NCBI GenBank assembly: GCA_964554805.1
Contig: CAZKPX010000001.1
Span: forward strand, 48,245-112,244
Reading direction: 5' to 3'
Length of the DNA stretch: 64,000 bases
DNA from: an uncultured Candidatus Saccharibacteria bacterium
GTDB lineage: Bacteria; Patescibacteriota; CAZHWT01
Positions 61,587 through 62,751 of the stretch are shown one piece after another. Under the pieces are notes generated by a model. That model did no database searches. It saw nothing but the letters and a program-made list of their open reading frames with translations, and was not told where the DNA came from. Position 1 is the first letter of the stretch. Each line of letters opens with the position of its first letter. Both the position numbers and the translations under genes were made by a program.

Positions 61587-61639
61587 ATGCGAACACCCCG
61601 GTTCGCATACACATAGATGTGTCGTGAACCGGGGTGGTG
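61587..61639. repeat. Palindromic repeat family B, copy 1.
   Basis: ATGCGAACACCCCGGTTCGCATACACATAGATGTGTCGTGAACCGGGGTGGTG, a set of nested inverted repeats. Confidence 0.75.
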
Positions 61640-61648
61640 GTTTGGAGT

Positions 61649-62257
61649 TTAGCCGAGGGAGGTTCGGCAGTAGCGCAGCGGGATGTAGCTGAAGCTGGTT
61701 CCCATCTGCGAACTGTCCTGGACATCCATCTGGTTGAACTCATAGGTGTATTGTGGATCGACCACCTGAAAACTCAGGCTGTTTGTCAGGGCGCTGTCGT
61801 TGATGACCTGGAACGATTTCCATTCCACCTGATAGGCATTGCCCTCTGGATCAACGCCGATGACGTTGTAGAAGGTAGCCGACCCCTGGAGGTAGATGGA
61901 ATTGGCTGCTAGGTCAATGCTTGCCCGACTTTCGAGCGAGACAAATCCTTCAACCAAGGTGAGCTCCTTGGTGACAAGTTTGCCATCGGCCACGCCGCAG
62001 TTGTGCTGGAAGGTTACCAGCAAAGGTTGTTCGGCGAGCTGGATAAGGCACTCGTTTTGGCCTGCAGGACAGGCGAAGGTCGCTGTTTCCAGCGATTGCG
62101 GAGACTCAGATGCTTGCTTCGCACCGACCACCGGCGAAATGCCGAGGATGGAGACGACGAAAATGAGCGCTAAAGTCCTAAAAGCTGTCTGTCTGTTCAA
62201 GGCGCACCCCTTTGGGCTACAGCCTAATTCTATCGTGGCACCCGCCAGACGAATCAA
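61649..62257 (-). CDS. Secreted hypothetical protein.
   Basis: Signal-peptide-like TLALIFVVSILGISPVVGA. It is flanked by family B repeats. Confidence 0.4.
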   Translation of the reverse strand: MIRLAGATIELGCSPKGCALNRQTAFRTLALIFVVSILGISPVVGAKQASESPQSLETATFACPAGQNECLIQLAEQPLLVTFQHNCGVADGKLVTKELTLVEGFVSLESRASIDLAANSIYLQGSATFYNVIGVDPEGNAYQVEWKSFQVINDSALTNSLSFQVVDPQYTYEFNQMDVQDSSQMGTSFSYIPLRYCRTSLG

Positions 62258-62376
62258 TGCTATATAGCTACTATTATATCATACTATAAGTCTTTTATCA
62301 AAAAATAACCTTGAGGAGGACGTTAAGGTTCAACCCCGTTTATCTTGATTGGAAGGCTACTTTACTGTTTTGGAAA

Positions 62377-62428
62377 TGCGAACACCCCGGTTCGCATACA
62401 CATAGATGTGTAGTGAACCGGGGTGGTG
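62377..62428. repeat. Palindromic repeat family B, copy 2.
   Basis: ATGCGAACACCCCGGTTCGCATACACATAGATGTGTAGTGAACCGGGGTGGTG. Confidence 0.75.
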
Positions 62429-62451
62429 TTGGTGTCTCTGTCGATTGCGGA

Positions 62452-62592
62452 TTAGGCGGGTGTTGGGGCCGCCTTCTTGACTGGTCTGGGTGGTGGGGCC
62501 TGGCTGGCCTTGATGACCTGCATTAGGCCGAGACCTGGCAGCTTGACGGGCGGATTGGCGATCCGAGAAGCGACTTGATGTTCAAACGTCAT
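62452..62592 (-). CDS. Questionable small Pro-rich ORF (46 aa).
   Basis: GGGAGA SD 5 nt before ATG 62592. It encodes MTFEHQVASRIANPPVKLPGLGLMQVIKASQAPPPRPVKKAAPTPA. Confidence 0.2.
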   Translation of the reverse strand: MTFEHQVASRIANPPVKLPGLGLMQVIKASQAPPPRPVKKAAPTPA

Positions 62593-62698
62593 GTTGTCTC
62601 CCTTCTGACGGCACTCAAGCTGAGTAAGATGACTATATCAGTCAATATGTGACTGCACAAGTCTAAGGAATTTATTTGGGTTTTATGTCTAGCTATTA

Positions 62699-62751
62699 CA
62701 TGCGAACACCCCGGTTCGCATACACGGGATGTGTAGCGAACCGGGGCGGTG
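62699..62751. repeat. Palindromic repeat family B, copy 3.
   Basis: cATGCGAACACCCCGGTTCGCATACACGGGATGTGTAGCGAACCGGGGCGGTG. Confidence 0.7.

Follow-up and report, generated by a model that had tools for sequence, protein, structure and literature searches.

The 64,000-nt stretch of an uncultured Candidatus Saccharibacteria genome analysed here (contig CAZKPX010000001.1, positions 48,245 to 112,244; the whole stretch is called the window, and all positions are counted from its first letter) carries three direct copies of a 52-53 nt palindrome, clustered within 1.2 kb, to which we refer as family B. The balance of the evidence leans modestly toward family B being a gene-end stem-loop (a terminator, an insulator or a protector of mRNA 3' ends) that was multiplied locally with, and partly independently of, the small orphan units that it follows. 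The copies, the open reading frames (ORFs) and promoters around them, and the convergent neighbor are as follows.

60662-61429, convergent with gene 1: DpnI gene, with its stop 157 nt from copy 1
61587-61639, minus strand: hairpin B copy 1, 9 nt 3' of the gene 1 stop and 157 nt past the end of the convergent DpnI gene
61649-62257 as listed (202 aa), or 61649-62200 from TTG 62200 (183 aa), minus strand: gene 1, secreted, with an N-terminal signal peptide
62273-62301, minus strand: gene 1 promoter, TTGATA-17-TGnTATAAT, 11/12 consensus, extended -10, TATAG in the spacer
62376-62428, minus strand: hairpin B copy 2, which follows the ORF2 stop after 23 nt and precedes the -35 box of the gene 1 promoter by 74 nt
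62452-62592, minus strand: ORF2, 46 aa, good Shine-Dalgarno sequence AGAAGGGAGA, without a family match
62700-62751, minus strand: hairpin B copy 3, 21 nt 3' of the ORF3 stop
62773-62862, minus strand: ORF3, 29-aa hydrophobic peptide MKEKIPRVALLSAIIFMIASILGLTPVGA
62935-62963, minus strand: ORF3 promoter, TTGACA-17-TATAAT, 12/12, TATAG in the spacer as for gene 1

An earlier note on this DNA had described three such copies around gene 1 and the two small ORFs, and both the copies and the flanked ORFs, all of them on the minus strand, are real, with starts corrected to 62376 and 62700 for copies 2 and 3 (62377 and 62699 in the note) and the low end of ORF3 to 62773 (previously 62774). The consensus given in that note matched exactly at 61587-61639 and 62376-62428, where no match is expected from 100 dinucleotide-preserving shuffles. 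Copy 2 is 98% identical to copy 1 (91% when the comparison is extended over 69 nt), and copy 3 is 89-91% identical to copies 1 and 2, with an exact match over the first 26 nt and a 1-nt deletion in the apical loop, where it differs from them. The lower 11-bp stem and its ATGCGAACA flank are invariant across all three. The inverted repeats that had been reported for each copy (GCGAAC/GTTCGC, ACACAT/ATGTGT and a long-range complementarity) were also confirmed on inspection, the nested pairs being ATGCGAAC/GTTCGCAT, ACACAT/ATGTGT and, over the longer range, CACCCCGGTTC/GAACCGGGGTG. The first of these pairs belongs to an 8-6-8 arrangement, ATGCGAAC-ACCCCG-GTTCGCAT, a 22-bp palindrome that is unchanged in 3/3 copies and reaches beyond the main stem.

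We calculated fold energies for each copy on both strands, with z-scores and 200 shuffles. Both strands are predicted to fold predominantly into a single long, interrupted hairpin of 17-19 bp, in which the long-range arms CACCCCGGTTC/GAACCGGGGTG form the lower stem and ACACAT/ATGTGT the upper, inner stem, closed by a loop of 4-5 nt. All three copies are predicted to form this stable stem-loop in the fold prediction that the earlier note had proposed, with energies from −28.8 to −37.2 kcal/mol (z = −5.3 to −7.1) that none of the 200 shuffles equaled; copy 1 gave −28.8 kcal/mol on the minus strand and −32.5 on the plus strand. In an alternative fold, GCGAAC pairs with GTTCGC through one arm of the main stem; the outer half of this pairing (ATGCGAACA on the plus strand) falls outside that stem and is invariant in 3/3 copies. 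No Rfam family was reached by B at the gathering threshold, a tRNA being the only match in the window, and up to E 10 the only hits were chance-level generic hairpins (E 3.7-9.4, 15-20 bits where 60-106 are needed).

The positions of the copies relative to genes are uniform. They begin 9, 23 and 21 nt past minus-strand stop codons and lie upstream of the promoter of the next unit, and none is found between a promoter and its ORF. Of the options in the earlier note, a family of transcription terminators fits best, as the copies follow stop codons in the same way as unique long hairpins elsewhere in the window; an attenuator or leader is excluded by position.

The units that end in copies 1 and 3 are similar to one another well beyond the hairpin. 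The gene 1 and ORF3 units align across the -35 box, the 5' untranslated region, the ribosome-binding site and the signal peptide, with 64.5% identity over 107 nt (E 1e-6), and the alignment can be extended to ~195 nt before homology ends, shortly beyond the cleavage site of the signal peptide and ~15 nt short of copy 3. Judged by this alignment the two units are paralogous. Since homology ends so close to copy 3, ORF3 appears to be a truncated paralog of gene 1 in which the promoter, the signal peptide and the hairpin remain but almost the whole coding sequence for the mature protein is gone. Within the alignment, TTG 62200 of gene 1 falls opposite the ORF3 ATG, with AAAGGGG before it; this codon is the likely true start of gene 1, giving a protein of 183 aa with a signal peptide. 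The ORF3 layout of a perfect promoter, a hydrophobic peptide and a strong hairpin also resembles that of a small membrane peptide or type I toxin gene.

Gene 1 itself is an orphan. Among 5.8 billion proteins it matches itself alone, the only remote similarity being to giant repeat surface proteins, and its AlphaFold single-sequence model (predicted local distance difference test score of 40.8) is too poor to use. Promoters of the type found before gene 1 and ORF3 (TTGAnn-N7-TATAG-N5-TATnnT) occur three times in the window, against 0.11 expected, at 15681-15709 (+), 62273-62301 (−) and 62935-62963 (−), and serve small orphan ORFs with hairpin ends. A quasi-palindrome around their -10 box is a possible operator, perhaps for the HTH_3 (XRE-family) regulator encoded at 63036-63311, 285 nt from copy 3. 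A further 12/12 promoter at 16609-16581 (−) precedes a strong hairpin that carries a T-run (16177-16146) by ~400 nt, with a small ORF between them; the tail of this hairpin starts TCGCAT and resembles the conserved family B tail.

The hairpins have diverged far less than the DNA next to them. Those of the gene 1 and ORF3 units are 89% identical, compared with ~64% for the adjoining homologous DNA. Hairpin identities of 89-98% beside flanks that have drifted or are unrelated point either to strong constraint on sequence and structure or to gene conversion.

Family B is a repeated member of a class of hairpins used at gene ends in this genome. A sliding-window scan of minimum free energy was too noisy to tell gene ends from coding sequence, and we used instead a census of perfect stems of at least 10 bp with loops of up to 26 nt across the 64-kb window. 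This census yielded 19 hairpins, 13 of them outside family B and a neighboring family, A, described below. Although ~82% of the window is coding, 11-12 of these 13 are intergenic; they lie -2 to 64 nt past a stop codon and often separate convergent genes. Some have the A/T-tract flanks of canonical A-stem-T terminators (11747, 45526 and 56266), and others at gene ends have no T-tract (for example 17791, 21881, 39851 and 53363). Between 56.3 and 62.9 kb there is one gene-end hairpin for each minus-strand gene or remnant (C1, C2, A1-A3 and B1-B3, numbered by family and copy). Three families besides B are repeated in the window.

57640-57689, 57928-57977 and 58329-58368: family A, a 40-50 nt perfect palindrome AAGATTTAATCCCA...TGGGATTAAATCTT, unlike B
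56269-56294 and 57048-57073: family C, 3' of the minus-strand orphan ORFs 56310-56909 and 57101-57562
16085-16113 and 17021-17050: family D, 3' of the plus-strand small ORFs 15742-16086 and 16713-17003

Each family A copy lies just 3' of a minus-strand ORF or remnant; its third copy adjoins a truncated MmeI C-terminal fragment (58024-58344) and follows a DUF6997/DUF7226 gene. The two copies of C, like the two of D, are ~0.8-0.9 kb apart, their homology does not extend past the hairpin, and the proteins encoded next to it are unrelated. One compensatory pair change is present in each of these two families (G-C to A-T in C, C-G to G-C in D), and this shows directly that pairing is under selection in hairpins of this class. 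In families A-D all six successive spacings between copies of a family are below 1 kb, and no copies are found elsewhere in the 64-kb window. Such spacings fit local duplication or conversion and do not fit a dispersing mobile element.

A short-word BLAST search for B covered the window, 10 kb past its right end and 4.3 kb past its left end (~78 kb in total). The earlier note had proposed a genome-wide census; over these ~78 kb only the three copies within 1.2 kb were found, with no further full or partial copy. Breaks in the corresponding Logan contigs fall where a k of 31 predicts them, at 58330 (A1 and A3 share 38 nt) and at 61593/61623 (B1 and B2 share 36 nt), and are therefore not a sign of extra copies elsewhere. 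A search of GTDB representative genomes with both arms and a free loop returned 50 loci, all of them unrelated GC-rich hairpins with different loops and flanks, and the genome studied here is evidently absent from that collection; a 20-mer of B gave five chance matches in GC-rich sequence of JGI metagenomes, with the second arm absent; and scans of IMG/VR for families B and A gave no match. No close homologs of gene 1 or of the adjacent pilin-like protein were found, and the RpoA cluster has a single member. The solved structures that match RpoA best (7l7b, 8i23, 7vpd and 6wvj) are enzymes of Clostridioides, Streptomyces and Bacillus. The lineage of this genome is poorly sampled.

If B is a gene-end stem-loop, its copies would form the 3' ends of the transcripts of three successive minus-strand units, each with a promoter of its own (ORF3, ORF2 and gene 1). 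The GC-rich stem of 17-19 bp might stop or pause RNA polymerase, block 3'-to-5' exonucleases, or both, and the stem-loop would in this way set the mRNA 3' end and shield each unit from the strong promoter that follows it, while copy 1 would additionally separate gene 1 from the convergent DpnI gene. That B does terminate or stabilize transcripts, and on which strand, we infer from this arrangement. RNase Y and YmdB are encoded in this genome, and given their presence 3' stem-loops could plausibly matter for mRNA decay here. The family may have arisen by local tandem duplication of a unit consisting of a promoter, a secreted-protein gene and a hairpin, the coding parts being subsequently deleted or replaced. 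The near-identity of the hairpins would then be held by selection on structure and sequence, by gene conversion between neighbors, or by both.

Several observations weigh against this interpretation. A U or T tract after the stem is absent on both strands (the minus-strand tails are GUUCGCAUAUCU, GUUCGCAUUUCC and GUUCGCAUGUAA), and a terminator scan called 0/3 copies, which weakens a strict label of intrinsic terminator, although many unique gene-end hairpins in this window also lack such a tract. Conservation of sequence extends to 9 nt outside the main stem (ATGCGAACA or, read on the minus strand, UGUUCGCAU), which are identical in all three copies; a signal of pure structure would not need this. 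No compensatory pair was found among the three B copies, which are near-identical. Beyond the hairpin, the ORF2 unit resembles the gene 1 unit in neither DNA nor protein, and at least one hairpin must therefore have been copied, or retained, independently of its flanks. Finally, it is possible that neither ORF2 nor ORF3 is a genuine gene.

The copies might instead be neutral leftovers, that is, by-products of local duplication and deletion, in an accessory region that changes quickly, that gene conversion has homogenized and whose function, if any, is limited to that of the ancestral single hairpin. ORF3 is visibly a deletion remnant, the truncated MmeI fragment adjoins a nearby family A hairpin, the region is rich in orphan and restriction-modification genes, and copies 1 and 2 are 98% identical despite the unrelated genes before them, all of which would be expected from such a history. 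Under neutrality, however, it is hard to see why the 11-bp lower stem and its flank remained invariant while adjoining homologous sequence drifted to 64%, why every copy retained the canonical gene-end position, and why families C and D acquired compensatory changes. We therefore regard neutral origin as unlikely, though it is the rival that fares best.

A mobile palindrome is a slightly more doubtful explanation. B might resemble repetitive extragenic palindromes (REPs) or miniature inverted-repeat transposable elements (MITEs) and have been spread by a RAYT or IS200/IS605-type transposase whose gene lies in another part of the genome, a MITE-like family being one of the proposals of the earlier note. 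Direct copies on both sides of gene 1 recall the ends of IS200/IS605-type elements, and the boundaries of B are sharp, with unrelated flanks. B also shows the features by which REPs are defined operationally, being extragenic, palindromic, highly similar between copies and without a T-tail (PMC12306157). Nevertheless, the copies lie adjacent to one another within 1.2 kb rather than dispersed over the ~78 kb, none occurring in the other ~77 kb, and their flanks (AGAT/GTTT, GGAA/TTGG and TTAC/TGCT for copies 1-3) include no abutting direct repeats, hence no target-site duplications, as well as no common flanking tetranucleotide and no GTAG tag. No integrase, reverse transcriptase, Y1 or other transposase was found among window ORFs of at least 150 aa, and the scans of GTDB representatives, JGI metagenomes and IMG/VR revealed no relatives. 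The three other hairpin families, moreover, show the same strictly local pattern, which points to local copying and not to transposition, and the MITE proposal is not supported over the ~78 kb searched.

We give little credence to a further possibility, namely that the hairpins are themselves active substrates, at the DNA level, of local copy-and-swap, through palindrome-templated strand switching or through hairpin-by-hairpin recombination without a dedicated recombinase. Such a process would multiply the palindromes at gene ends and truncate or exchange the intervening genes, with arrays of orphan cassettes as the outcome, each composed of a promoter, an ORF and a hairpin. Compatible with it are the four local families within 64 kb, the remnants that adjoin A3 and B3, and a possible inversion in copy 1 in one sample. 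In the latter, a contig from a second run, SRR16798008, enters copy 1 from the DpnI side and continues as the reverse complement of its interior (window positions 61605-61623) but ends early; it could reflect either a polymorphism in which the loop has flipped between the inverted arms or a chimera formed by fold-back at the palindrome.

It is very unlikely that B acts as double-stranded DNA, with ATGCGAAC-ACCCCG-GTTCGCAT as a protein-binding site, for instance an operator of the XRE-family regulator at 63036-63311. The invariance of this 8-6-8 part in all three copies, its extent beyond the main stem and the proximity of the HTH_3 gene to copy 3 would suit an operator, but the sites are downstream of ORFs and away from promoters, and the promoters bear another conserved motif, the TATAG spacer.

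The least probable of the readings with any appeal is a site-specific recombination site, attC- or dif-like, that bounds gene cassettes, as in the earlier suggestion that B marks an island boundary. The 8-6-8 core is similar to the core sites of tyrosine recombinases, a direct repeat follows each small ORF as attC follows cassettes, and the cassette-like units are unrelated. The R''/R' boxes (RYYYAAC ... GTTRRRY) are nevertheless missing at the element ends: GTTCGCA fits R' at 4/7 positions, and TGCGAAC, its complement, is only 6 nt from it, within the 3' arm and not at the far end; an integrase was found neither in window ORFs of at least 150 aa nor in the 10 kb past the window; each unit has a strong promoter of its own; and the neighboring families A, C and D differ in sequence. 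GC content shows no compositional step, and core ribosomal and RNA polymerase genes start ~3 kb further on, the 10 kb past the window end containing a two-component system followed by the S9-L13-L17-RpoA-S4-S11-S13-IF1 genes. The suggestion of an island boundary is thus not supported.

Three further candidates fail outright: CRISPR (clustered regularly interspaced short palindromic repeats) on the copy spacings of 789 and 324 nt, a DNA-uptake sequence on the presence of only six arms in 78 kb, and a retron or other noncoding RNA linked to a reverse transcriptase on the lack of any such gene among window ORFs of at least 150 aa.

Other features of the window stand apart from these questions. 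Between A3 and B1 lies a restriction-modification cluster (58410-61429) that encodes a DUF6996/6997/7226 protein, an N6_N4 DNA methylase and the DpnI-family (methyl-directed) endonuclease, and that forms a separate 3.3-kb contig in Logan. The sole RNA gene in the window is tRNA-Pro(GGG) at 49162-49238 (−), which does not mark an integrated island because there is no integrase beside it. A tandem array of hexamers (AGAACT/AGGACT units) occupies 32211-32327, and short repeats of the GCGACGGGCGACG type occur at two distant sites, 23229-23262 and 37060-37107.

If family B is indeed a gene-end stem-loop, three short transcription units end here, one of which (ORF3) should be annotated as a remnant, and gene ends in this poorly sampled lineage would be marked by long perfect hairpins, often without a U-tract. 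Neighboring genes that share homologous hairpins but have unrelated coding parts could also be used to trace the turnover of orphan genes in accessory regions.

Among known systems, integron attC sites resemble B as imperfect palindromes in direct orientation 3' of successive small ORFs, but B lacks the R''/L''/L'/R' boxes and an IntI, its units are self-promoted, and the adjacent arrays consist of unrelated palindromes. Intrinsic (Rho-independent) terminators, including the hairpin-only 'I-shaped' ones, share with B a GC-rich stem-loop a few to tens of nt after the stop codon, and copy 1 lies between convergent genes as a bidirectional terminator would. Unlike a typical terminator, B has no U-tract, a stem about twice as long and about twice as stable, a sequence that is repeated and 9 conserved nt outside the stem. 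E. coli REPs in 3'-terminal position are, like B, extragenic, palindromic, highly similar, without a T-rich tail and 3' of transcription units (PMC12306157), and roles in mRNA 3' protection as well as homogenization by gene conversion are attributed to REPs in the review by Higgins et al. (1988), as cited in PMC12306157. REPs, however, number tens to hundreds of copies genome-wide and are 14-40 nt long, whereas three copies of B were seen, within 1.2 kb of the ~78 kb searched, and B is longer (a 43-nt hairpin in a 53-nt unit); the REP GTAG/CGTC tag does not adjoin its stem, and no RAYT/Y1 is found among window ORFs of at least 150 aa. Finally, stem-loop sequence families are common in bacteria, with 92 families described in 29/40 genomes (Cozzuto et al. 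2008, PMC2267715). B is likewise an intergenic repeat family with a common predicted hairpin, though a very small one, strictly local in distribution and known so far from a single uncultured genome, and if it is a gene-end stem-loop it would add one private family to a large class of repeated stem-loops at the ends of genes.
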